Source: a virus (Duplodnaviria > Heunggongvirae > Uroviricota > Caudoviricetes). Taken from it: 11,137 bases of DNA. The position numbers and the translations under genes are program-made. The stretch is taken from IMG/VR virus record IMGVR_UViG_2554235127_000004, one strand, 5' to 3'. The stretch's first letter is position 1. Every line of letters begins with the position of its first letter. Positions 1 through 11,137 of the stretch are shown here, in pieces. The notes beneath the pieces were generated by a model that saw nothing but the letters and a program-made list of their open reading frames with translations, did no database searches and was not told the DNA's origin.

Positions 1-166
1 TTATTCGCCAGGTGCTCCCTTTTAATTAACTGTTTTAGCGGAGGATGCGGAAAAAATTCAACTCATTTGTTAATTTTTAAAATTTATTTTTATTTGGATA
101 ATCAAATATTTACTCCGTATTTGCATAAAAACCATGCGAGTTACGGGCCTATAAGCCAGGCGAGAT

Positions 167-215
167 ATGATCTATATCAATTTCTCATCTATAATGCTTT
201 GTTAGTATCTCGTCG
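167..215 (+). promoter_or_regulatory. Candidate FNR-dependent promoter upstream of focA-pflB: FNR box at 167-180, possible -10 TAGTAT at 203-208
   Basis: Sequence ATGATctatATCAA at 167-180 matches the FNR consensus TTGAT-N4-ATCAA at 9 of 10 positions. TAGTAT lies 32 bp downstream of the box centre, the class II spacing. A perfect TATAAT also sits at 190-195. Anaerobic FNR control of focA-pfl is established knowledge; the exact promoter assignment is inference. Confidence 0.45.
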
Positions 216-240
216 CCGACTTAATAAAGAGAGAGTTAGT

Positions 241-1098
241 GTGAAAGCTGACAACCCTTTTGATCTTTTACTTCCTGCTGCAATGGCCAAAGTGGCCGAA
301 GAGGCAGGTGTCTATAAAGCAACGAAACATCCGCTTAAGACTTTCTATCTGGCGATTACCGCCGGTGTTTTCATCTCAATCGCATTCGTCTTCTATATCA
401 CAGCAACCACTGGCACAGGTACAATGCCCTTCGGCATGGCAAAACTGGTTGGCGGCATTTGCTTCTCTCTGGGGTTGATTCTTTGTGTTGTCTGCGGAGC
501 CGATCTCTTTACTTCCACAGTGTTGATTGTTGTTGCCAAGGCGAGTGGGCGCATCACCTGGGGTCAGTTGGCGAAAAACTGGCTAAATGTTTATTTTGGC
601 AACCTGGTCGGCGCACTGCTGTTTGTACTTTTAATGTGGCTTTCCGGCGAGTATATGACCGCAAATGGTCAATGGGGACTAAACGTCCTACAAACCGCCG
701 ACCACAAAGTGCACCATACTTTTATTGAGGCCGTCTGTCTTGGTATCCTGGCGAACCTGATGGTATGTCTGGCAGTATGGATGAGTTATTCTGGCCGCAG
801 CCTGATGGACAAAGCGTTCATTATGGTGCTGCCGGTCGCGATGTTTGTTGCCAGCGGTTTTGAGCACAGTATCGCAAACATGTTTATGATCCCGATGGGT
901 ATTGTAATCCGCGACTTCGCATCTCCGGAATTCTGGACCGCTGTCGGTTCTGCACCGGAAAATTTTTCTCACCTGACCGTGATGAATTTCATCACTGATA
1001 ACCTGATTCCGGTTACGATCGGTAATATTATCGGCGGTGGTTTGTTGGTTGGGTTGACATACTGGGTCATTTACCTGCGTGAAAACGATCACCATTAA
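241..1098 (+). CDS. focA: Formate channel FocA (formate/nitrite transporter family), GTG start
   Basis: From the GTG at 241 the frame encodes 285 aa beginning MKADNPFDLLLPAAMAKVAEEAG, matching FocA as I recall it; multiple hydrophobic helices. The track ORF starts at an ATG at 67, but that extension is an AT-rich leader. A purine-rich GAGAGAG lies upstream of the GTG. Confidence 0.9.
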   Translation: MKADNPFDLLLPAAMAKVAEEAGVYKATKHPLKTFYLAITAGVFISIAFVFYITATTGTGTMPFGMAKLVGGICFSLGLILCVVCGADLFTSTVLIVVAKASGRITWGQLAKNWLNVYFGNLVGALLFVLLMWLSGEYMTANGQWGLNVLQTADHKVHHTFIEAVCLGILANLMVCLAVWMSYSGRSLMDKAFIMVLPVAMFVASGFEHSIANMFMIPMGIVIRDFASPEFWTAVGSAPENFSHLTVMNFITDNLIPVTIGNIIGGGLLVGLTYWVIYLRENDHH

Positions 1099-1152
1099 TG
1101 GTTGTCGAAGTACGCAGTAAATAAAAAATCCACTTAAGAAGGTAGGTGTTAC

Positions 1153-3435
1153 ATGTCCGAGCTTAATGAAAAGTTAGCCACAGCCTGGGAAGGTTTTACC
1201 AAAGGTGACTGGCAGAATGAAGTAAACGTCCGTGACTTCATTCAGAAAAACTACACTCCGTACGAGGGTGACGAGTCCTTCCTGGCTGGCGCTACTGAAG
1301 CGACCACCACCCTGTGGGACAAAGTAATGGAAGGCGTTAAACTGGAAAACCGCACTCACGCGCCAGTTGACTTTGACACCGCTGTTGCTTCCACCATCAC
1401 CTCTCACGACGCTGGTTACATCAACAAGCAGCTTGAGAAAATCGTTGGTCTGCAGACTGAAGCTCCGCTGAAACGTGCTCTTATCCCGTTCGGTGGTATC
1501 AAAATGATCGAAGGTTCCTGCAAAGCGTACAACCGCGAACTGGACCCGATGATCAAAAAAATCTTCACTGAATACCGTAAAACTCACAACCAGGGCGTGT
1601 TCGACGTTTACACTCCGGACATCCTGCGTTGCCGTAAATCCGGTGTTCTGACCGGTCTGCCAGATGCTTATGGCCGTGGTCGTATCATCGGTGACTACCG
1701 TCGCGTTGCGCTGTACGGTATCGACTACCTGATGAAAGACAAACTTGCACAGTTCACCTCTCTGCAGGCTGATCTGGAAAACGGCGTAAACCTGGAACAG
1801 ACTATCCGTCTGCGCGAAGAAATCGCTGAACAGCACCGCGCTCTGGGTCAGATGAAAGAAATGGCTGCGAAATACGGCTACGACATCTCTGGTCCGGCTA
1901 CCAACGCTCAGGAAGCTATCCAGTGGACTTACTTCGGCTACCTGGCTGCTGTTAAGTCTCAGAACGGTGCTGCAATGTCCTTCGGTCGTACCTCCACCTT
2001 CCTGGATGTGTACATCGAACGTGACCTGAAAGCTGGCAAGATCACCGAACAAGAAGCGCAGGAAATGGTTGACCACCTGGTCATGAAACTGCGTATGGTT
2101 CGCTTCCTGCGTACTCCGGAATACGATGAACTGTTCTCTGGCGACCCGATCTGGGCAACCGAATCTATCGGTGGTATGGGCCTCGACGGTCGTACCCTGG
2201 TTACCAAAAACAGCTTCCGTTTCCTGAACACCCTGTACACCATGGGTCCGTCTCCGGAACCGAACATGACCATTCTGTGGTCTGAAAAACTGCCGCTGAA
2301 CTTCAAGAAATTCGCCGCTAAAGTGTCCATCGACACCTCTTCTCTGCAGTATGAGAACGATGACCTGATGCGTCCGGACTTCAACAACGATGACTACGCT
2401 ATTGCTTGCTGCGTAAGCCCGATGATCGTTGGTAAACAAATGCAGTTCTTCGGTGCGCGTGCAAACCTGGCGAAAACCATGCTGTACGCAATCAACGGCG
2501 GCGTTGACGAAAAACTGAAAATGCAGGTTGGTCCGAAGTCTGAACCGATCAAAGGCGATGTCCTGAACTATGATGAAGTGATGGAGCGCATGGATCACTT
2601 CATGGACTGGCTGGCTAAACAGTACATCACTGCACTGAACATCATCCACTACATGCACGACAAGTACAGCTACGAAGCCTCTCTGATGGCGCTGCACGAC
2701 CGTGACGTTATCCGCACCATGGCGTGTGGTATCGCTGGTCTGTCCGTTGCTGCTGACTCCCTGTCTGCAATCAAATATGCGAAAGTTAAACCGATTCGTG
2801 ACGAAGACGGTCTGGCTATCGACTTCGAAATCGAAGGCGAATACCCGCAGTTTGGTAACAACGATCCGCGTGTAGATGACCTGGCTGTTGACCTGGTAGA
2901 ACGTTTCATGAAGAAAATTCAGAAACTGCACACCTACCGTGACGCTATCCCGACTCAGTCTGTTCTGACCATCACTTCTAACGTTGTGTATGGTAAGAAA
3001 ACTGGTAACACCCCAGACGGTCGTCGTGCTGGCGCGCCGTTCGGACCGGGTGCTAACCCGATGCACGGTCGTGACCAGAAAGGTGCTGTAGCGTCTCTGA
3101 CTTCCGTTGCTAAACTGCCGTTTGCTTACGCTAAAGATGGTATCTCCTACACCTTCTCTATCGTTCCGAACGCACTGGGTAAAGACGACGAAGTTCGTAA
3201 GACCAACCTGGCTGGTCTGATGGATGGTTACTTCCACCACGAAGCATCCATCGAAGGTGGTCAGCACCTGAACGTTAACGTGATGAACCGTGAAATGCTG
3301 CTCGACGCGATGGAAAACCCGGAAAAATATCCGCAGCTGACCATCCGTGTATCTGGCTACGCAGTACGTTTCAACTCGCTGACTAAAGAACAGCAGCAGG
3401 ACGTTATTACTCGTACCTTCACTCAATCTATGTAA
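1153..3435 (+). CDS. pflB: Pyruvate formate-lyase (glycyl radical enzyme)
   Basis: 760-aa ORF starting [15 protein letters not shown]. It contains the active-site Cys-Cys motif (IACCVSPM) and the C-terminal glycyl radical motif RVSGYAV. Strong RBS (AGAAGGTAGG) upstream; sits directly after focA as in the focA-pflB operon. Confidence 0.97.
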
Positions 3436-3477
3436 TTAGATTTGACTGAAATCGTACAGTAAAAAGCGTACAATAAA

Positions 3478-3503
3478 GGCTCCACGAAAGTGGGGCCTTT
3501 TTT
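3478..3503 (+). terminator. Rho-independent terminator downstream of pflB
   Basis: GGCTCCAC-GAAA-GTGGGGCC hairpin (8-bp stem with one G-U pair) followed by TTTTTT; a second T-run follows at 3516-3522. Confidence 0.8.
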
Positions 3504-3626
3504 AGCACGAGAGCCTTTTTTGTCAGCTATCTATACTTTAAGGTGACTGCCAAAACAGACTCGACGTAGCCTTCGAGCTGCGCACCAACACGGCCTCAGA
3601 TGGGCCACATCTGGAGAAACACCGCA

Positions 3627-3653
3627 ATGTCAGTTATTGGTGACATTTTTTGA
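3627..3653 (+). pseudogene. pflA: 5' remnant of pflA (PFL-activating enzyme) truncated at the prophage junction: MSVIG then DIF-stop
   Basis: GGAG RBS, then ATG TCA GTT ATT GGT (MSVIG, the N-terminus of PflA as recalled), then GAC ATT TTT TGA and unrelated AT-rich sequence leading into ogr. No PflA radical-SAM CxxxCxxC region follows. Confidence 0.6.
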
Positions 3654-3692
3654 TATCTAATCACATGAAATAAAAGGATTTATTTCTGGTCA

Positions 3693-3712
3693 CGTCCACA
3701 CATTGACCACAT
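3693..3712 (-). other. Two direct repeats TGTGGTCA / TGTGGACG (read on - strand), candidate integrase arm-type binding sites
   Basis: The reverse complement of 3693-3712 reads TGTGGTCA-ATGT-GTGGACG, two copies of a TGTGG(A/T)C motif 12 bp apart, lying 40-70 bp inside the prophage end. My recollection that P2 Int arm sites resemble TGTGGACA is uncertain. Confidence 0.3.
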
Positions 3713-3716
3713 CGAC

Positions 3717-3740
3717 AAAAAAGCCCCTCGACTGAGGGGC
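3717..3740 (-). terminator. Rho-independent terminator after ogr (end of late transcript)
   Basis: Perfect 7-bp GC-rich stem GCCCCTC / GAGGGGC with a 4-nt loop at 3723-3740, followed on the - strand by six T. It lies 14 bp downstream of the ogr stop. Confidence 0.7.
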
Positions 3741-3753
3741 TTTCTGTTTGTAA

Positions 3754-3972
3754 TTACATCCACATAATTTGCTGCCCTGACGGCAACGGGTGCGGCCTTA
3801 CGGCGTGGACTTCTCCCGGCTTCACGATGTATCGCTGTACCGACTCATAAGTGATGAACGTGGCGCTGCAATTCACGTTCTGGCACTGGTGATAACGCTC
3901 TTTTGTCGTGTCAGTGATATAGCGACTTGTACGCGCATGTGCGGCATGCTGGCATAAAGGACAATGAAACAT
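3754..3972 (-). CDS. ogr: Ogr-type zinc-finger late-gene transcriptional activator (72 aa)
   Basis: From the ATG at 3972 the frame encodes MFHCPLCQHAAHARTSRYITDTTKERYHQCQNVNCSATF..., with the CxxC...CxxxxC zinc-binding arrangement of P2 Ogr. The track ORF has a 21-codon upstream extension that runs into the promoter and is probably not translated. Confidence 0.9.
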   Translation of the reverse strand: MFHCPLCQHAAHARTSRYITDTTKERYHQCQNVNCSATFITYESVQRYIVKPGEVHAVRPHPLPSGQQIMWM

Positions 3973-4006
3973 CGCGAGCACCTCTTCCGGTTTTGTTGAT
4001 GGTGCC

Positions 4007-4035
4007 ATTTTAGTTAATTTATCCTTATAAAACAA
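4007..4035 (-). promoter_or_regulatory. Candidate sigma70 promoter for ogr
   Basis: On the - strand: TTGTTT (4035-4030), 17-bp spacer, TAAAAT (4012-4007), about 35 bp upstream of the ogr ATG, in the D-ogr intergenic region. Confidence 0.4.
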
Positions 4036-4053
4036 ACAGATAAATAATAAACA

Positions 4054-5217
4054 TCACTCATCACCTTCTGTTTCGTACTCCACATCAGAAAGCCTGACCT
4101 CAAGCTCTAAGGACGTCGTGAAGCCGCTATTATTCAGAAAATGTGTCACCTTAGTGATTGTCCAGTCCTGCTCGTCTATGACGCGCTTAAAGCCTGACAC
4201 TTTAACCGGTGTTTCCGTGTAAATATCTGCCCGACCGGTAGCCAGGCTGATGGAAAACTCCGCGACGCCCCGTTGCAGTTTGTCCCACTTCGCCTGAGCG
4301 GCGCGCATGGCCTGCGCTTTTGTGGCATATACCGTAGTCAGGGCAAAAACGTTGTCAGCTTCACCGGCCATGTATTCACCTTCGCGCGCTTCCGGTACTT
4401 TTGGCGCTTTCTTCTGCGTGACCGGTTTCGCTTTCGGGTGCTCCAGTGCGCGCAGGTGTTTCTCTTTCTTTTTGCGTTTCAGTTTTACCTTCTGCTTTTG
4501 CGGCTTCGGGTCTTTGGTGTGTAGCCACTTTGCCGTTACGCCGGTGTAGGCTCCACGGTCAGCAATCGCAAAATGGTGACGGTCGCCATCGCTGCGGGTG
4601 ATGGTAATCTGCGGGATTTTCTTACCGCTGGCCGTCACCCCCTGCCCCGCTTTGAGAAACAGCAGTTTTCCCATTTTTACCGACACCTCACCGCCGTTGC
4701 GTTCAGCAAGACGGGTCAGGAATTTCGCATCAGACTCCTGCGACTGGTCGATGTGCGGGATTTTAATTCCGGCCAGTGACGGAGCGACACTGGCTTCCAG
4801 CCTGTTACGGGTGGCTATCGCCTCAACAATCGCACCGAGCGTGGTGTCATGCCAGGAGCCTTCCCGGCGGGAATTGAGCGTCCCGCGAAAATCTGCACTC
4901 CGGGCGCGGATGGTGACCACATCCGGTGCGCCCCGGTGTTCAACCTCATCAACGGTAAATTTCCCTTTGCATACCAGGGCAAAACCTTTCCAGCCGATAT
5001 ACACCGTCAGGACAGCGCCACGAACCGGCAGCCCGACCTGCCCGTCGGCATCGTTCAGTTCAATATCAAGCTGGTCAGCCTCAAAGCCCCGGTTATCCGT
5101 CAGGGTCATGCTCATCAGACGGTCGCTGATATTGCCGGTAATATCCCTGCTGTCGAGCATCAGCATATAATCCGGCGTCAGTGTACTGCCTGCATCAAAT
5201 GTCAGCGCATCCAGCAT
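4054..5217 (-). CDS. D: P2 gpD-like tail protein (late gene D)
   Basis: 387-aa ORF starting MLDALTFDAGSTLTPDYMLMLDSRD, matching P2 gpD in length and sequence as recalled. Its start ATG overlaps the U stop (TAATG). Confidence 0.9.
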   Translation of the reverse strand: MLDALTFDAGSTLTPDYMLMLDSRDITGNISDRLMSMTLTDNRGFEADQLDIELNDADGQVGLPVRGAVLTVYIGWKGFALVCKGKFTVDEVEHRGAPDVVTIRARSADFRGTLNSRREGSWHDTTLGAIVEAIATRNRLEASVAPSLAGIKIPHIDQSQESDAKFLTRLAERNGGEVSVKMGKLLFLKAGQGVTASGKKIPQITITRSDGDRHHFAIADRGAYTGVTAKWLHTKDPKPQKQKVKLKRKKKEKHLRALEHPKAKPVTQKKAPKVPEAREGEYMAGEADNVFALTTVYATKAQAMRAAQAKWDKLQRGVAEFSISLATGRADIYTETPVKVSGFKRVIDEQDWTITKVTHFLNNSGFTTSLELEVRLSDVEYETEGDE

Positions 5218-5696
5218 TATCCCGCCCCCGTCATACCCGTGAATCTGGTCGCCATACTGCCAGCCTTACCGATGAGCGATTCCGCCTGTTTACCGATATC
5301 GCCATAAAGCGCGGCCAGTGATTCATCAACGCGGGTGAGTGACAGCGTAAAATCAATTTTCCGGGGTGTGCCGTCTGCAAAGAAAATACTCCCTGTTTCA
5401 CTCACCCTGCTGATGACATACATGCCGTAAATCATGCCGGTGCCATCCAGCAACGGCCACGCCCGTCCCTCCTCTGCCATCAGCCTGAGCGTGGTCATCG
5501 TCAGCTTGCCGCCGGTCAGTTCGGGATAAAGCACACCGGCCAGCGTCATGTTTTCCTCACCCACACCGAGAAACTGGTAGGCATCCCGTTTACCGATACG
5601 GGAATTTGACGGCCAGCGATAATCTGATTCACGCTGCATGGTCTGGTGTGGCAGCGTCTGGCGCATAAAAACAAACATACCTAACGCGAGCATCAT
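5217..5696 (-). CDS. U: P2 gpU-like tail protein
   Basis: 159-aa ORF in the conserved position between T and D; stop overlaps the D start by 1 nt, suggesting translational coupling. Confidence 0.88.
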   Translation of the reverse strand: MMLALGMFVFMRQTLPHQTMQRESDYRWPSNSRIGKRDAYQFLGVGEENMTLAGVLYPELTGGKLTMTTLRLMAEEGRAWPLLDGTGMIYGMYVISRVSETGSIFFADGTPRKIDFTLSLTRVDESLAALYGDIGKQAESLIGKAGSMATRFTGMTGAG

Positions 5697-5710
5697 TTTT
5701 CGTCACCTCC

Positions 5711-8158
5711 TTAACCGTCATGCATCATGCTGGCACGGGCGCGCGCACGTTTATCCCGCTCGTATTTTTCGAGCGCATCCTGTAACTGGCGGTCGAGCTG
5801 AGTCCCCGGCGCAGTACCGCCCGTCAGACTGATGTGATATTCGTTTTTACTCTGGTCCACATAAGAGCGGCCAGCCGGTGCCGTAACCGGCTGATAAGCC
5901 TGATAGCCTGCATAAGAGCTGGTCGCCGGAATATAACCACCGGTGCCATACGTGGCGGCATGAGTTCTGGCGGCGGTCTGGTCAAGTGTGTCTGACTCTT
6001 TGTTGATAACACCGAGTTTTTCCAGTACCCAGTCAATACCACTGCGCAGTTTGTTGAACGCATTAAGCGGCAGCATCAACGCGTCAGCCAGTGCCTGCCC
6101 GAACATGACGCCCGTGTCACGGCAACGGTTCAGGGTGTCCTGGGTGGCTTTAACCGGGGCGATCAGGTTTTTAAACCACTGCCACGCGGCCTGTAACTTT
6201 TCGCCCAACCAGTCAAACACCGGCTTAAGTGGCGTGAACAGTTCCCCCACCGGCGCAAATGCCGCTTTCAGCCCTTCCACCACACCGCCAAAGAATGCGC
6301 TGACAGGCTCCCAGTATTTACGGATAAGCAACGCCCCGGCGACAATGGCGGCCACCACGGCCACAACCGGCCAGCTAATCGCTCCGATGGCGGTCATAAC
6401 AGCACTGCCAACCGTCGTGAAGATTGCCCCCATTGCGCCTGCTGCCGCGATGATGGCATTGATGCCAGTGATAACCGGCCAGGCTACGAGGCCAATGGCA
6501 CCGATGACACCAATCAGTGCCAGTGCACCACCGACAATAAGTCCGATGGTTGACGCCAGTGATTTGTTTTTCTGGATCCAGCCGTCGAGTTTTAACACAT
6601 ACTTTGTGGCCGTCTGCGTGAGCTTACGCAGTGCGCCTTCCTGCTGGTCAAACAGGTCAGTCCCCACCGCCTCATAAGCGGACTGAAACTCTTTAAAGTC
6701 ACCGCCGAGGTTGTCCTGCATGATATTTACCAGCTCGGCGGTCTTCCCGTCTGAGGCTTTAAACGCAGCGGTCAGTTTGTCCAGCTTTCCGGTTGAGGCG
6801 GCAGTCATCAGCACGGCGGCGGCTGAGCTGGCCTCCTCCCCGAAAATGGTTTTCATGTATTCAGCCTGCTGGGCAGTACCGAGCCGGTTTTTCTCAAAAC
6901 TGGCCTGCATTTCTTTCAGAATGGTAAATACTGGTCGGGTATTCCCCTTACTGTCTGAGGTTTTTACGCCAAGCTCTTTGAGTGCATCCCATGCTTTTCC
7001 CGTTGGTGCCTGCAGGCGACTTAACACGGCACGGCTTCCCGTCCCCGCCATTGAGCCTGTGATTTTTGCATCATGCAGCGCCCCGACCATTGCGGCGGTT
7101 TCTTCAATGCTGACACCGGCATTTTTTGCCACAGGTGCGGCATAGGTCAGCGCATCGCTCATGCCGTCAAAATCGGCGGCGGTTTTGTTCATCGTCATGG
7201 AGAGAACATCCCCGATATGAGCGACCTTATCGTTTGAAAGCTGAAAGGCGGATTTCATCCCCATCAACAGGGCGGCGTTTTCTTCCATCGTGCGACGGTT
7301 CGCCAGCGCCATATTCAGCGTGACCGGCGTTGCCGCCTGAATGGCATCAACATCCCCACCCGCTTTCGCGATGATTATCTGTGCACCGGCCGCATCATCC
7401 GCCGAGGCGGCGGTATTGTCGCCGAGCTGGCGCGCCTGCTTGCGTAGCGCGGCCATTTCGGCGGAGTCTTTTGCCACACCGAGCACGGCCTGTAATTCTG
7501 AGTTTTTCTGCGCAAATTCATAACCGGGCATCAGCAGCTTAACTCCGGCCATCGTTCCCGCCGCCGCAATCCCCACACCGGCAGCGCCCACTGAGGCCAT
7601 ATTTCCGGCCAGTTCCTTGCCGGCCTGATAACGCTGTTTGACTGCGTTAAGTTTTGCCTGTTGCGCACTGACACGCGCCAGCGCGTCACGCTGCCGGTTA
7701 AGCTGTGCGGTGGTTTCACTGATACGGTTTTTCAGTCCCTGCTCATCATGTGCAAGATTGCGGGTATTAATTCCCACAGCGGCCAGTTCCCGCTGCTGGC
7801 GTTTAACGGAATCCGTCAGGCGGTTATATTTCGCCTGTAAGTCCTCCGCCGCACGCTTTGCGGATTCCAGCACTTTCGCCTGAGCACGGGTCGGACGTTC
7901 GGTGTTTTTAAACTGTGTGGCAAGGGCTTCGGCTTCCTGCCGAGCCTTTTCAAGTGCATGACCAGTCACGGCGAGCTGTGCACTGGTCTTGCGAAATCCC
8001 TCAATACGGGATGCCTGACCGTTCAGCTCGCGCAGTGATTTTTGTGTTTCCCGGATATCCCCCGACAGCGATTTGCTCGCTGTGCGGATGGATTTAAACG
8101 GGCGGGATGCCTGGTCAACAGCCCTGAGCAATACCTGTAATTTTACATTGTTACTCAT
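5711..8158 (-). CDS. T: Tail tape measure protein (P2 gpT-like)
   Basis: 815-aa ORF with long Ala/Gln/Arg-rich coiled-coil-like regions and a central stretch of Gly/Ala/Ile-rich hydrophobic segments, typical of tape measure proteins. It follows the E/E' pair. Confidence 0.9.
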   Translation of the reverse strand: MSNNVKLQVLLRAVDQASRPFKSIRTASKSLSGDIRETQKSLRELNGQASRIEGFRKTSAQLAVTGHALEKARQEAEALATQFKNTERPTRAQAKVLESAKRAAEDLQAKYNRLTDSVKRQQRELAAVGINTRNLAHDEQGLKNRISETTAQLNRQRDALARVSAQQAKLNAVKQRYQAGKELAGNMASVGAAGVGIAAAGTMAGVKLLMPGYEFAQKNSELQAVLGVAKDSAEMAALRKQARQLGDNTAASADDAAGAQIIIAKAGGDVDAIQAATPVTLNMALANRRTMEENAALLMGMKSAFQLSNDKVAHIGDVLSMTMNKTAADFDGMSDALTYAAPVAKNAGVSIEETAAMVGALHDAKITGSMAGTGSRAVLSRLQAPTGKAWDALKELGVKTSDSKGNTRPVFTILKEMQASFEKNRLGTAQQAEYMKTIFGEEASSAAAVLMTAASTGKLDKLTAAFKASDGKTAELVNIMQDNLGGDFKEFQSAYEAVGTDLFDQQEGALRKLTQTATKYVLKLDGWIQKNKSLASTIGLIVGGALALIGVIGAIGLVAWPVITGINAIIAAAGAMGAIFTTVGSAVMTAIGAISWPVVAVVAAIVAGALLIRKYWEPVSAFFGGVVEGLKAAFAPVGELFTPLKPVFDWLGEKLQAAWQWFKNLIAPVKATQDTLNRCRDTGVMFGQALADALMLPLNAFNKLRSGIDWVLEKLGVINKESDTLDQTAARTHAATYGTGGYIPATSSYAGYQAYQPVTAPAGRSYVDQSKNEYHISLTGGTAPGTQLDRQLQDALEKYERDKRARARASMMHDG

Positions 8159-8578
8159 TCGTGTTTCCGCTTCGCCGGAGCGCCTTTTCGCGCCATGTGA
8201 TGAGTTCGGTCAGGCTCATGGGATACAGTTCTGATGGCGGCCAGTGAAATACCACTGCCACATCCGCCATCAGGTCATCGACCGAGAGATTTTTCGGAAA
8301 CGTCACTGCACCGAGTTCGGCGACAAAAAACCGACCACCTTACCGGCCAGCGCCACAAGGTCAGGCAGTTCCAGCGCGGCGACTTCCTGCTCGGTCAGCA
8401 TCGGTGCCGTCATGCGCGGCAGCACTTTAATCAGTGCATCGACTTCGGAGTTCGCGACCGCTGCCAGACTGACACCGCGCAGCGTCCCGGCATTGGGTTT
8501 CATCAGCGTGACCTGTTCGATAACCTGCTCACCACGTTTGACCGGATTGTCCAGGGTAATGACATTTTCTTTGTTCAT
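8151..8578 (-). CDS. Tail assembly chaperone fusion E+E' made by a programmed -1 frameshift (about 141-142 aa)
   Basis: I translated the -1 frame by hand from the slippery site: 56 sense codons (VAELGAVTFPKNLSVDDLMADVAVVFHWPPSELYPMSLTELITWREKALRRSGNTNE) with no stop until TAA at 8151-8153. This frame has no start codon of its own. It matches the E/E' arrangement described for P2. Confidence 0.7.
8303..8578 (-). CDS. E: Tail assembly chaperone gpE (91 aa, zero-frame product)
   Basis: ORF starting MNKENVITLDNPVKRGEQ between FII and T, ending at TGA 8303-8305. Confidence 0.88.
   Translation of the reverse strand: MNKENVITLDNPVKRGEQVIEQVTLMKPNAGTLRGVSLAAVANSEVDALIKVLPRMTAPMLTEQEVAALELPDLVALAGKVVGFLSPNSVQ
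8324..8330 (-). other. Slippery heptamer T TTT TTG for the -1 frameshift (E to E')
   Basis: The zero-frame codons GGT TTT TTG place T_TTT_TTG in the X_XXY_YYZ register at E codons 84-85. The -1 frame is open from here to the T start region. Confidence 0.65.
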
Positions 8579-8605
8579 GGTTTTCTCACTTCTGAATCGG
8601 GGTTA

Positions 8606-8626
8606 CCGGTCAGCCTGGCTGACCGG
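8606..8626 (-). other. 21-bp near-perfect palindrome (RNA hairpin) in the FII-E intergenic region
   Basis: CCGGTCAGCC-T-GGCTGACCGG between the FII stop (8634) and the E start (8578). No U-tract follows on the - strand, so it is not a classical terminator. Confidence 0.4.
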
Positions 8627-8633
8627 ATGAAAA

Positions 8634-9152
8634 TCACAGGCCGATATTGCGGCGGTGTTGCTCCAGTCGGTCGACGCCGTTCACCTTCTCAATCATGTTG
8701 ATGGTGTCAATTTCGACCAGCTCCTTACCGTCCATCGTCAGCCGGAAATAGGTGCAGACCACGGAGATTTTCGACTCGGTGTCTTCTCCCTGTTTGCCCT
8801 CGCCGGTGTCGATTTCTTTCTGACGTCCACGCATGACCACCTCGACGGCCACCGTTTCGCCGGTATCGTCGCGCTGGTAAGAGCCTGCAAAACGAATCGG
8901 CACGGCATCCACGCCGGTTGCGGCGTAAAGCTCCCAGATAACCGAATCCGGGAAGCCACCGAGCGACCACTCCATTGACAGCGCATCGTCATCAAGGCCG
9001 AGGTCTACCGGTGCGCTGCCGTTCATCCCCGCACCGCGATAGTTTTCGAGCTTACGGGTCAGTTTTGGCAGCGTGACGGACTTCGCGACGCCCTGATAGC
9101 TGTAGCCGTTCAGAAAGACGTTCATTAACTTGAGTTTGCGCGGCATTGCCAT
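8634..9152 (-). CDS. FII: Tail tube protein (P2 gpFII-like)
   Basis: 172-aa ORF starting MAMPRKLKLMNVFLNGYSYQGVAKS, 12 bp downstream of the FI stop with a GGAG RBS. Confidence 0.92.
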   Translation of the reverse strand: MAMPRKLKLMNVFLNGYSYQGVAKSVTLPKLTRKLENYRGAGMNGSAPVDLGLDDDALSMEWSLGGFPDSVIWELYAATGVDAVPIRFAGSYQRDDTGETVAVEVVMRGRQKEIDTGEGKQGEDTESKISVVCTYFRLTMDGKELVEIDTINMIEKVNGVDRLEQHRRNIGL

Positions 9153-9164
9153 CGGTCAGGCTCC

Positions 9165-10355
9165 TTAATTGCTGTTAACCGAGGTGACCAGATTTGCCAG
9201 GTATTTATCGGTAATACGCTGGCGCAGGGTCAGGTTTTCGAGAGGAGGCACCGGTGTATAGTCGTAGTCGATATACAGTTTTCCGGCCTTGAGGGTTTCC
9301 GCATCGTTGGATTCTTCGCTGAACCAGCATGAGCCATCCACGATATAGCCGTTTGTTTTCAGCTCACGGAATTTGGCATTGATGCCGTCAACGATATCGC
9401 GAATCAGCGTTGCGGTGATGGGCTTGTCCACCGCCCACATGTGCGCCTCAGCCATCGTGTCGGCCAGCACCTGCGCGGTGCGGGTGTAGTTTTCAAAGAG
9501 AAACAGCGGGTCATCAGAGCAGGTACGGTTACCCCAGAAGCGGAAACCGTCGCGGCGAATCAGCGTAGTGACGCCTGACTCGTTAAGCAGGTCAGCATCG
9601 GTGCCGGACTCCTGCAAATCCCAGAATACAGAGGCGCTGATGCCGGTAACACCGTTTACCCCGACGTTGGACAGCGTTTTATGCCAGCCCTGCTCCTGGT
9701 CGATTTTAGCGCGCAGACCCAGCGCACGGGCGGTGGCATACGCGGTGGCGGTGGTACTGGTAACCGTATCCCATGCGAGGAAATCCGGCCAGATGACCAT
9801 CAGCTCACGCTGGCTGAAATTCTGGCGGTAGGCTTTCACCTCGGAAATGGTTTTACAGCCCCATGCGCTGATATACCCGAAAGCGCGCAGCTTCTGACAG
9901 ACGGATGCCAGTGCAACAGCCACCTCTTTGGTATCCAGTCCCGGCACACCGAGAATACGCGGTTTAACACCGGTTACCGACTCCGCCGCCAGCAGGGCTT
10001 TCAGTCCGGTGTACTGACCGTTTTCGTCAGTGGTGCCGATGATATTGGAAACGGTCTGCGCGAGTTTCGTTTCTTCGTCGTCGCCGGTTCCGTCTTCCAC
10101 GCGCACGACAACGGTGACCGGTTTTGACTGGTCAGCGATGGCCTGCAACGATGCCGCCAGCGTGCCTTTTTTACCGGCCTTTGCAATCGCGCTCTGCACA
10201 TTGGTGATCAGCACCGGTTTATTGACGGGGAAGGTTTCCGCATCCGCATCGCTGGCCGTGCAGACCATGCCAACAATGGCGGTGGATACGGTGGAAATGA
10301 CGCGGGTGCCGTCGTTAATCTCCAGCACCTGCACGCCGTGATGATAGTCACTCAT
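9165..10355 (-). CDS. FI: Contractile tail sheath protein (P2 gpFI-like)
   Basis: 396-aa ORF starting MSDYHHGVQVLEINDGTRVIS, first gene of the FI-FII-E-T-U-D order; GGAG RBS upstream. Confidence 0.92.
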   Translation of the reverse strand: MSDYHHGVQVLEINDGTRVISTVSTAIVGMVCTASDADAETFPVNKPVLITNVQSAIAKAGKKGTLAASLQAIADQSKPVTVVVRVEDGTGDDEETKLAQTVSNIIGTTDENGQYTGLKALLAAESVTGVKPRILGVPGLDTKEVAVALASVCQKLRAFGYISAWGCKTISEVKAYRQNFSQRELMVIWPDFLAWDTVTSTTATAYATARALGLRAKIDQEQGWHKTLSNVGVNGVTGISASVFWDLQESGTDADLLNESGVTTLIRRDGFRFWGNRTCSDDPLFLFENYTRTAQVLADTMAEAHMWAVDKPITATLIRDIVDGINAKFRELKTNGYIVDGSCWFSEESNDAETLKAGKLYIDYDYTPVPPLENLTLRQRITDKYLANLVTSVNSN

Positions 10356-10414
10356 CCGTTTAACTCCGTGGTTAATGGGTGAGTGATATTTTCAGTTGTG
10401 CCGGAGATGTCAGG

Positions 10415-11008
10415 CTATTTGTCCCGGTTGGCTAAGGGATGACACAATTTATTCTTTGTCGCTGATGAGGGGAATTTTTTATAGAGCGTGGACAGGCCAA
10501 TATCAAAAATCAGCGCCACACGTTGACGAGATTCCCCCGCAGCCAGCAACCGTCCGACCTGCTCCCACTCACCCGCAGTGAGTTTCGGTCGTCTGCCACC
10601 AATACGACCTTTGGCTCTGGCCGCTTCCAGTCCGGCGCGTGTCCGCTCGACAATGAGTTCTCGCTCCATTTCAGCCAGGGCACCCATCACATGAAAGAAA
10701 AAACGCCCCATCGGCGTGCTGGTATCAATAGCATCCGTCAGGCTGCGAAAATTAACGCCGCGTTCGCGCAGTTCCTCAACCAGAATGACCAGATGCCGCA
10801 TACTACGCCCCAGCCTGTCCAGCTTCCAGACCACCAGTGTATCCCCCTCAGATAATGTTCTGAGCAGTTTTTTCAGTCCCGGTCGGTCGGACTTTGTGCC
10901 GCTGATTTTATCCTCAAAAATCAGCTCACATCCTGCACACTCCAGCGCATTACGCTGCAATTCCGTATTCTGGTCATTTGTTGATACGCGGACATAGCCA
11001 ATAAGCAT
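10415..11008 (-). CDS. Serine recombinase, DNA invertase of the Gin/Hin/Cin/Pin family
   Basis: From the ATG at 11008 the frame encodes MLIGYVRVSTNDQNTELQRNALECAGCE...VVWKLDRLGRSM...GRFFFHVMGALAEMERELIVERT...STLYKK. It has the catalytic serine in the GYVRVSTNDQ motif and a C-terminal helix-turn-helix, and resembles Mu Gin as recalled. The track ORF has a 29-codon upstream extension that is probably not translated. Confidence 0.85.
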   Translation of the reverse strand: MLIGYVRVSTNDQNTELQRNALECAGCELIFEDKISGTKSDRPGLKKLLRTLSEGDTLVVWKLDRLGRSMRHLVILVEELRERGVNFRSLTDAIDTSTPMGRFFFHVMGALAEMERELIVERTRAGLEAARAKGRIGGRRPKLTAGEWEQVGRLLAAGESRQRVALIFDIGLSTLYKKFPSSATKNKLCHPLANRDK

Positions 11009-11063
11009 GATGGATCCCCTGAATAAAAACCGGAGATGATGCCACTTGCCCGTTATCTCTGCA

Positions 11064-11089
11064 TTTTCATAAACGTTGGTTTGGGAACA
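11064..11089. other. Candidate 26-bp invertase crossover site (gix/hix/cix-like)
   Basis: TTTTCATAAACG-TT-GGTTTGGGAACA: two imperfect inverted 12-bp half-sites around a 2-bp core with the conserved AAAC(C/G)-NN-GGTTT centre. By my own alignment it matches recalled gixL at 17 of 26 and hixL at 18 of 26 positions. It lies 56 bp upstream of the invertase ATG. Confidence 0.5.
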
Positions 11090-11137
11090 CTGCAATCATC
11101 CTTCACAGATAAAACGGGTAAAATTGCATTAAATGGC

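Follow-up and report, generated by a model that had tools for sequence, protein, structure and literature searches.

The closest described system to the locus analysed here is the Pin/P segment of e14 in Escherichia coli K-12 (pinE, with stfE-tfaE / tfaP-stfP). The two share the order of their parts, namely the constant part of a tail fibre, two convergent pairs of fibre cassette and chaperone, a crossover site, and an invertase gene that is transcribed away from the segment. However, in e14, which is a cryptic element of lambdoid type, pin is followed by mcrA, whereas the present module is located in a P2-type tail cluster and its invertase frame runs into the late promoter P_F. The Gin/G system of phage Mu and the Cin/C system of phage P1 use the same family of recombinases, 26 bp sites with a 2 bp core, and a constant fibre N-terminus that is combined with alternative C-termini and their dedicated chaperones. 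The Mu G segment has 34 bp inverted repeats. In P1, cin is transcribed towards the segment and cixL overlaps the 3′ end of cin. Unlike the locus examined here, Mu and P1 carry unrelated fibre cassettes and represent another type of phage.

Inversion is also established for P2-like prophages, as two such prophages of EPEC E2348/69 have been found by paired-end sequencing to phase-vary in this manner (Goldberg et al., 2014; PMC4272514). For the simpler of the two loci, inversion ends were reported at 2977580-2979467 and both orientations were measured in culture (PMC4272514). We find two 26 bp sites of the type described below at this locus, and their central dinucleotides coincide with these ends. 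This locus is collinear with the DNA described below (segment, invertase, sheath and tube), with 75% nucleotide identity to its positions 9000-11086 and an invertase that is approximately 75% identical (149 of 199 aligned columns). The EPEC prophage differs in that it is truncated and has an integrase fragment where the constant part of the fibre gene H would be. The second EPEC locus carries three 215 bp repeats (a shufflon), in contrast to the two short sites of the class studied here.

Closer in sequence are Escherichia phage pro483, phage S164, the phage 'P2' of O157:H43 T22 and Salmonella phage MET_P1_103_31, which are 96-97% identical in nucleotides over FII, FI, the invertase gene and the crossover site. 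Their gene is annotated as a DNA invertase or as hin, and fibre and chaperone genes adjoin it. The variable cassettes of these four phages differ from those of the present locus, and homology ends at the crossover site. A further example is Fin, from the P2-like prophage Fels-2 in Salmonella. Phage P2 itself has the same backbone and P_F, but it carries fixed H and G genes and the cargo gene fun(Z), and it lacks both the invertase and the crossover sites. According to a 2024 preprint, the Z/fun hotspot of P2 often holds a DNA invertase, and the adjacent genes invert.

An invertase gene and a crossover site upstream of the tail sheath gene

The window, by which we mean the whole 11,137 bp stretch that was analysed, is an entire draft contig (APNU01000240.1, assembly GCA_000387825.2) that was recovered in our collection of related loci as L022, in reverse orientation. 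Up to approximately position 3647 the window is host DNA with 99% identity to E. coli K-12, including focA and pflB (1153-3435, + strand). The right end of a P2-like prophage then begins with ogr (3754-3972, - strand). Further genes on the - strand are D (4054-5217), U (5217-5696), the tape measure gene T (5711-8158), E/E′ (8151-8578) and FII (8634-9152), all of which are open reading frames in the P2-type tail order. The last is FI (9165-10355, - strand), the first gene of the F operon, which has 96-97% nucleotide identity to P2 FI and is annotated as the tail sheath gene in relatives. The genes thus follow the order FI-FII-E/E′-T-U-D-ogr of a P2-like (Peduovirus) tail cluster, and FI is preceded by the late promoter P_F. 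The block from FI to ogr as a whole is 96-97% identical to phage P2, with annotations that agree.

The junction between host and prophage (3627-3657) falls within the opening codons of pflA, which encodes the pyruvate formate-lyase activating enzyme. It reads ATG TCA GTT ATT GGT GAC ATT TTT TGA, of which the first five codons only match pflA; homology to K-12 reaches position 3647, and homology to the prophage of E. coli C11 extends from 3657 onward. Prophages at this pflA site with at least 80% of the whole window covered occur in 381 of the 5,426 complete E. coli genomes. The host part also contains a 750-codon open reading frame (1174-3426, - strand) antisense to pflB. This frame almost certainly arises from the codon composition of pflB, which is highly expressed, and is not a gene.

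A reading of the sequence alone had placed a Gin/Hin-family invertase gene directly upstream of FI and co-directional with it, at the position where P2 has Z/fun. Both statements prove correct. A gene for a serine DNA invertase of the Pin/Gin/Cin/Hin family is located at 10415-11008 on the - strand, separated by 59 bp from FI, which lies downstream on the same strand. In P2, the corresponding place is taken by fun(Z), which is on the opposite strand, with G and H after it. The invertase gene is translated without interruption from an ATG at 11008 to a TAG at 10415-10417, yielding a protein of 197 amino acids that begins MLIGYVRVSTNDQ. RefSeq WP_019841968.1, the protein annotated in E. coli C10 and C11, has the identical sequence, and exact copies were found among the contigs of 95 blocks in the assembly collection.

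Family membership is well supported by several comparisons. The protein contains the Pfam domains Resolvase (residues 3-135, E = 2e-52) and HTH_7 (residues 138-181, E = 1.2e-12), and the Gin structures 3UJ3/4M6F align to residues 1-182 (E = 8e-94). Over 178 ungapped amino acids it is 86.5% identical to PinE of e14, 80.3% identical to Cin of P1 and 79.8% identical to Gin of Mu. A search of NCBIfam added nothing beyond Pfam, returning only sub-threshold matches to large serine recombinases and Mpi. Inactivating mutations, which the earlier reading had suggested looking for, are absent. There are no stop codons or frameshifts, and the catalytic residues are intact (YVRVS with R7 and S9, R42, and the DRLGR motif D64-R65-L-G-R68). 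Residues that are conserved uniquely in Fis/enhancer-dependent invertases have been defined in Hin as K47, K/R48, K/R51, Q151, R154 and L155, which make contacts with Fis and the enhancer (PMC3798978). The corresponding residues of the window protein are K46, K47, R50, Q150, R153 and L154, and these are likewise intact.

Upstream of the invertase gene is a 26 bp crossover site of the pix/gix type (11064-11089, + strand), comprising an outer half TTTTCATAAACG, a TT core (11076-11077) and an inner half GGTTTGGGAACA. A site resembling gix and hix had been noted 56 bp upstream of the start codon; the site is confirmed, and the distance is corrected to 55 nt. It differs from the family consensus TTYTCNNAAACSWWSGTTTNNGARAA at one position and is the sole match in the window when up to three mismatches are allowed. 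The chance expectation for such a match is 0.01 per window as estimated from dinucleotide shuffles, one of 200 of which produced any match. The same scoring gives site centres that coincide with the annotated boundaries of the Mu G segment and with the cixL crossover point of the P1 C segment. Of the 26 positions of the window site, 24 are shared with the site next to pinE in the e14 element of K-12, and both differences are in the inner half-site. In hundreds of E. coli genomes, homology to the window breaks off at position 11086, inside the site, which is the signature of a recombination junction.

Beyond the core begins a silent C-terminal cassette of a Gp53-like tail fibre (11078-11137, + strand; reading ...GLGTLQSSFTDKTGKIALNG), which points away from the invertase gene and off the end of the contig. 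As the contig stops 48 bp after the site, it lacks the invertible segment itself. An open reading frame at 11036-11137 (+ strand) and its RefSeq equivalents are annotated as free-standing genes for a 'gp53-like domain-containing protein' or a 'phage tail protein'. The annotated frame has an artificial N-terminus (MMPLARYLCIFINV...) that is produced by reading through the crossover site. The frame parked next to the invertase gene is a promoterless 3′ cassette of H and not an independent gene.

The 5′ end of the invertase gene includes a candidate recombinational enhancer (10919-10990, - strand; nucleotides 19-90 of the gene) that is homologous to the Fis enhancer annotated within the 5′ end of P1 cin. 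The gin enhancer likewise resides within the 5′ end of its invertase gene. Ungapped alignment of these 72 nucleotides gives 56 identities with the annotated cin enhancer, 56 with gin and 63 with pinE. Two candidate Fis cores are found on the - strand at 10972-10986 (gene nucleotides 23-37) and 10924-10938 (gene nucleotides 71-85), and their centres are 48 bp apart, which is the canonical spacing of Fis sites in such enhancers. Because this stretch also encodes the most conserved part of the protein, we examined synonymous sites. Fully conserved codons number 4 of 19, as compared with 9 of 90 (Fisher p = 0.17), a result in which constraint on the enhancer is inseparable from coding constraint. 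Analogy with the characterized invertases suggests that the window enzyme would depend on Fis and the enhancer.

The 3′ end of the gene meets the late promoter of the F operon. The equivalent of the P2 binding site for the P_F activator Ogr (10424-10452, - strand) overlaps the last 12 invertase codons, and the P_F core and leader, recognized by similarity to P2, occupy 10356-10423 on the same strand. The activator site reads GGTGGTTGTGCTGTCGATTAGCCAACCGG in P2 and ATAAATTGTGTCATCCCTTAGCCAACCGG in the window, where it is partly retained (TTGTG...TTAGCCAACCGG), and from approximately position 10435 to the ATG of FI the window is nearly identical to P2. As the invertase frame runs through the activator site, the C-terminus of the protein is 13 residues longer than that of PinE. 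This overlap may be an insertion scar at the Z/fun hotspot. It could alternatively couple the two elements, such that late activation or occupancy of P_F modulates invertase expression or termination, or such that read-through from the invertase gene provides basal transcription of the F operon, although we regard coupling of this type as highly improbable. Were it to operate through late activation or occupancy, fibre switching would be timed to lytic growth.

Inversion of the adjacent segment in near-identical prophages

The sequence-only reading had predicted an invertible segment just past the right edge of the window that most likely switches tail-fibre C-termini and their assembly chaperones. 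We examined this prediction in prophages that are 99.6-99.8% identical to the window. These carry a second 26 bp site, in inverted orientation, at codon 272 of the tail-fibre gene H. The two sites are 1.83 or 2.31 kb apart (1833 bp in one class of loci and 2309 bp in the class of the window). Scoring with a half-site weight matrix yields exactly two strong sites per locus, inverted relative to one another and with matching TT cores. A third site, as would be expected of a shufflon like that at the 1.89 Mb EPEC locus, was sought with the same matrix at a permissive threshold in the class of the window, and none was found.

The segment between the two sites has the predicted content. One strand encodes a Gp53-like fibre C-terminus and a chaperone of 143-147 amino acids, whereas the other strand encodes a Collar-type C-terminus and a TfaE-like chaperone of 200 amino acids that is annotated as tfaE in relatives. 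All long contigs that carry the exact invertase and tape-measure proteins of the window give the gene order H, a fibre C-terminus with its chaperone, a chaperone and the second C-terminus on the opposite strand, the invertase gene, and FI, and no further genes interrupt this series. The H frame continues through the site into either cassette, giving ...LAYLGLG-TLQSSFTDK... or ...LAYLGLG-EGSALPVG.... Non-structural cargo, for which a search of the adjacent DNA had been suggested, is absent between the two sites in these relatives. Given the 99.6-99.8% identity of these prophages to the window, the strain from which the window derives probably has the same second site and segment.

Both orientations of the segment, as had been anticipated, are represented among otherwise identical prophages when genomes are compared with one another. 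Three pairs of prophages with identical flanks differ solely by a precise inversion. The flanks of E. coli C11 and C10 are 100% identical over 9,991 and 6,161 bp, and these enclose an inverted segment of 1,868 bp with one mismatch. Loci L013 and L017 have flanks of 5,235 and 1,932 bp at 100% identity and an inverted segment of 1,866 bp, also with one mismatch. For L014 and L018, a flank of 1,928 bp is 100% identical, as are the 491 bp of inverted sequence that are available before the L018 contig ends. With flanks that are 100% identical over 16 kb and inversion as the only difference, the flips must be very recent.

The window itself can be placed in this series. Positions 1-11086 are 99.63% identical to L014, and the last 65 bases (11073-11137) correspond to positions 5600-5664 of L008 and 4750-4814 of L014, where they lie inside H in inverted orientation and in the same frame as H of L014. 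By this alignment, the window is the flipped isomer of L008 and L014. The half-sites have been exchanged in a corresponding manner. In L008, L014, L020 and L021, the terminal letters are AACA at the H site and GAGAA at the invertase-proximal site, while the window and L018 have AACA at the end of the proximal site. Such a reciprocal swap of inner half-sites is the expected outcome when DNA is broken and rejoined at the central TT.

The relative abundance of the two orientations is indicated only roughly by our searches. Among the best 25 matches to FI plus the invertase gene, each cassette type is located beside the invertase in approximately half. Two junction queries of 181 bp were also run against the complete E. 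coli genomes, but their counts (865 genomes for the Collar-type cassette, with e14-type loci included, and 4 genomes for the Gp53-like cassette) are unfit for a tally of orientations because the former cassette is conserved and Gp53-like cassettes are too diverse.

Several additional observations concern the same region. E. coli MS 198-1 has the FI-invertase module both in NZ_CP146689.1, a record of 66.8 kb, and in the chromosome (NZ_CP146687.1), with opposite cassettes adjoining the invertase gene. The double record could mean that the strain has two copies of the module or that the prophage is excised or episomal, or it could be an artefact that mixed orientations introduced during assembly. 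Loci L003 and L004 belong to a different P2-like lineage that has a longer tape measure and an invertase gene with 87% nucleotide identity to that of the window. When their positions 6071-6158 are compared with window positions 11050-11137, the proximal site is nevertheless the same, and the opening 48 bp of the same Gp53-like cassette follow at 100% identity. Identity of the cassette start despite the divergence of the lineages argues that fibre cassettes have been exchanged between prophage lineages at the crossover site. Two loci that encode the identical tape-measure protein, L015 (8531-8994) and L019 (8531-8929), have a 4.6 kb deletion extending from about codon 112 of H to near the 3′ end of FI, which removes the invertible segment, the invertase gene and most of the sheath gene. 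An invertase-mediated origin of this deletion was rejected, as the endpoints share 5 bp of microhomology and have no crossover site. The deletion is ordinary prophage decay.

A model for fibre switching and its alternatives

We conclude, with high confidence, that the window carries the constant arm (the invertase gene and the proximal site) of a Pin-type inversion switch in a P2-like prophage. The mechanism we propose is modelled on Hin, Gin and Cin. Dimers of the invertase, which is presumably expressed only weakly, would bind the proximal site (11064-11089) and the inverted site at codon 272 of H, which is expected to lie approximately 2.3 kb to the right, on another contig. The bound sites would be brought together on a Fis-bound enhancer in the 5′ end of the invertase gene, by analogy with the known systems, and both would be cut at the central TT, after which one pair of subunits would rotate by 180 degrees and the ends would be rejoined. 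The segment flipped in this way would consist of two promoterless cassettes for fibre C-termini, each followed by its own chaperone gene. The 271 N-terminal residues of H, which are constant, would thereby be joined to a different receptor-binding tip in each orientation, with the cognate chaperone co-expressed from the late V operon. Since the Gp53-like cassette is parked silently by the invertase gene in the window, the Collar-type tip and the TfaE-like chaperone should be the pair that is expressed. With two alternative tips available, a population of lysogens would probably release phage with two host ranges.

The data also bear on the possibility that the module is a frozen relic, whose invertase and site no longer recombine in this prophage and whose two orientations among genomes are old fixed alleles. 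Evidence for flipping in the lineage of the window comes from comparison between genomes, a scan of positions 10300-11137 for sigma-70-like promoters found none recognizable, and related prophages are decaying, as in the two loci that have lost 4.6 kb from H to FI with the invertase gene included. All of this would be compatible with a relic. Old alleles are difficult to reconcile, however, with pairs of prophages that differ by the inversion alone, and a defunct enzyme is difficult to reconcile with an open frame in which every catalytic and Fis-contact residue is preserved and with the retention of both sites with matching TT cores. Moreover, the EPEC homologue flips in culture even though its own prophage is truncated. 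We therefore consider a relic very unlikely. Less probable still is that the recombinase acts mainly on other targets, either as a resolvase or in trans (on invertible segments such as e14 P or a Mu-like G segment, or on another P2-like prophage), with the adjacent site being incidental: many genomes carry several related modules, with up to seven places per genome that match FI plus the invertase gene, Gin, Cin, Pin and Hin cross-complement one another, and the near identity of the e14 and window-prophage sites makes cross-action plausible, but the site occupies the canonical place beside the gene, as in Mu and e14, the local segment inverts at exactly these sites, and any action in trans would add to the local function rather than replace it.

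Consequences for P2-like prophages of E. coli

The suggestion that the DNA next to FI deserves inspection as a variable cargo position was borne out with respect to the switch, but the arrangement that it revealed has already been described and is widespread. FI accompanied by the invertase gene is found in 546 of the 5,426 complete E. coli genomes, and the mechanism, the enzyme family and its place in P2-like phages have all been described before. The locus opens no new question.

There are consequences for the interpretation of genome records. The switch may explain why the window contig and several others stop at this position. Contigs break within or near the segment in 5 of the 18 loci that were retrieved with the invertase and tape-measure proteins of the window (L005-L022). 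As the window contig ends 48 bp past the site, away from the branch point, its break may instead reflect repeated fibre and chaperone genes rather than mixed orientations, and the breaks in the 5 of 18 loci are consistent with either cause. Likewise, open reading frames annotated as 'gp53-like' or 'phage tail protein' beside an invertase gene of this type are to be read as alternative 3′ cassettes of H.

For the biology of these phages, the switch implies that lysogens of this prophage type, which is common in E. coli, would release particles of two different receptor specificities. Such dual specificity would be relevant to the prediction of host range and to the engineering of P2-type phages or tailocins.
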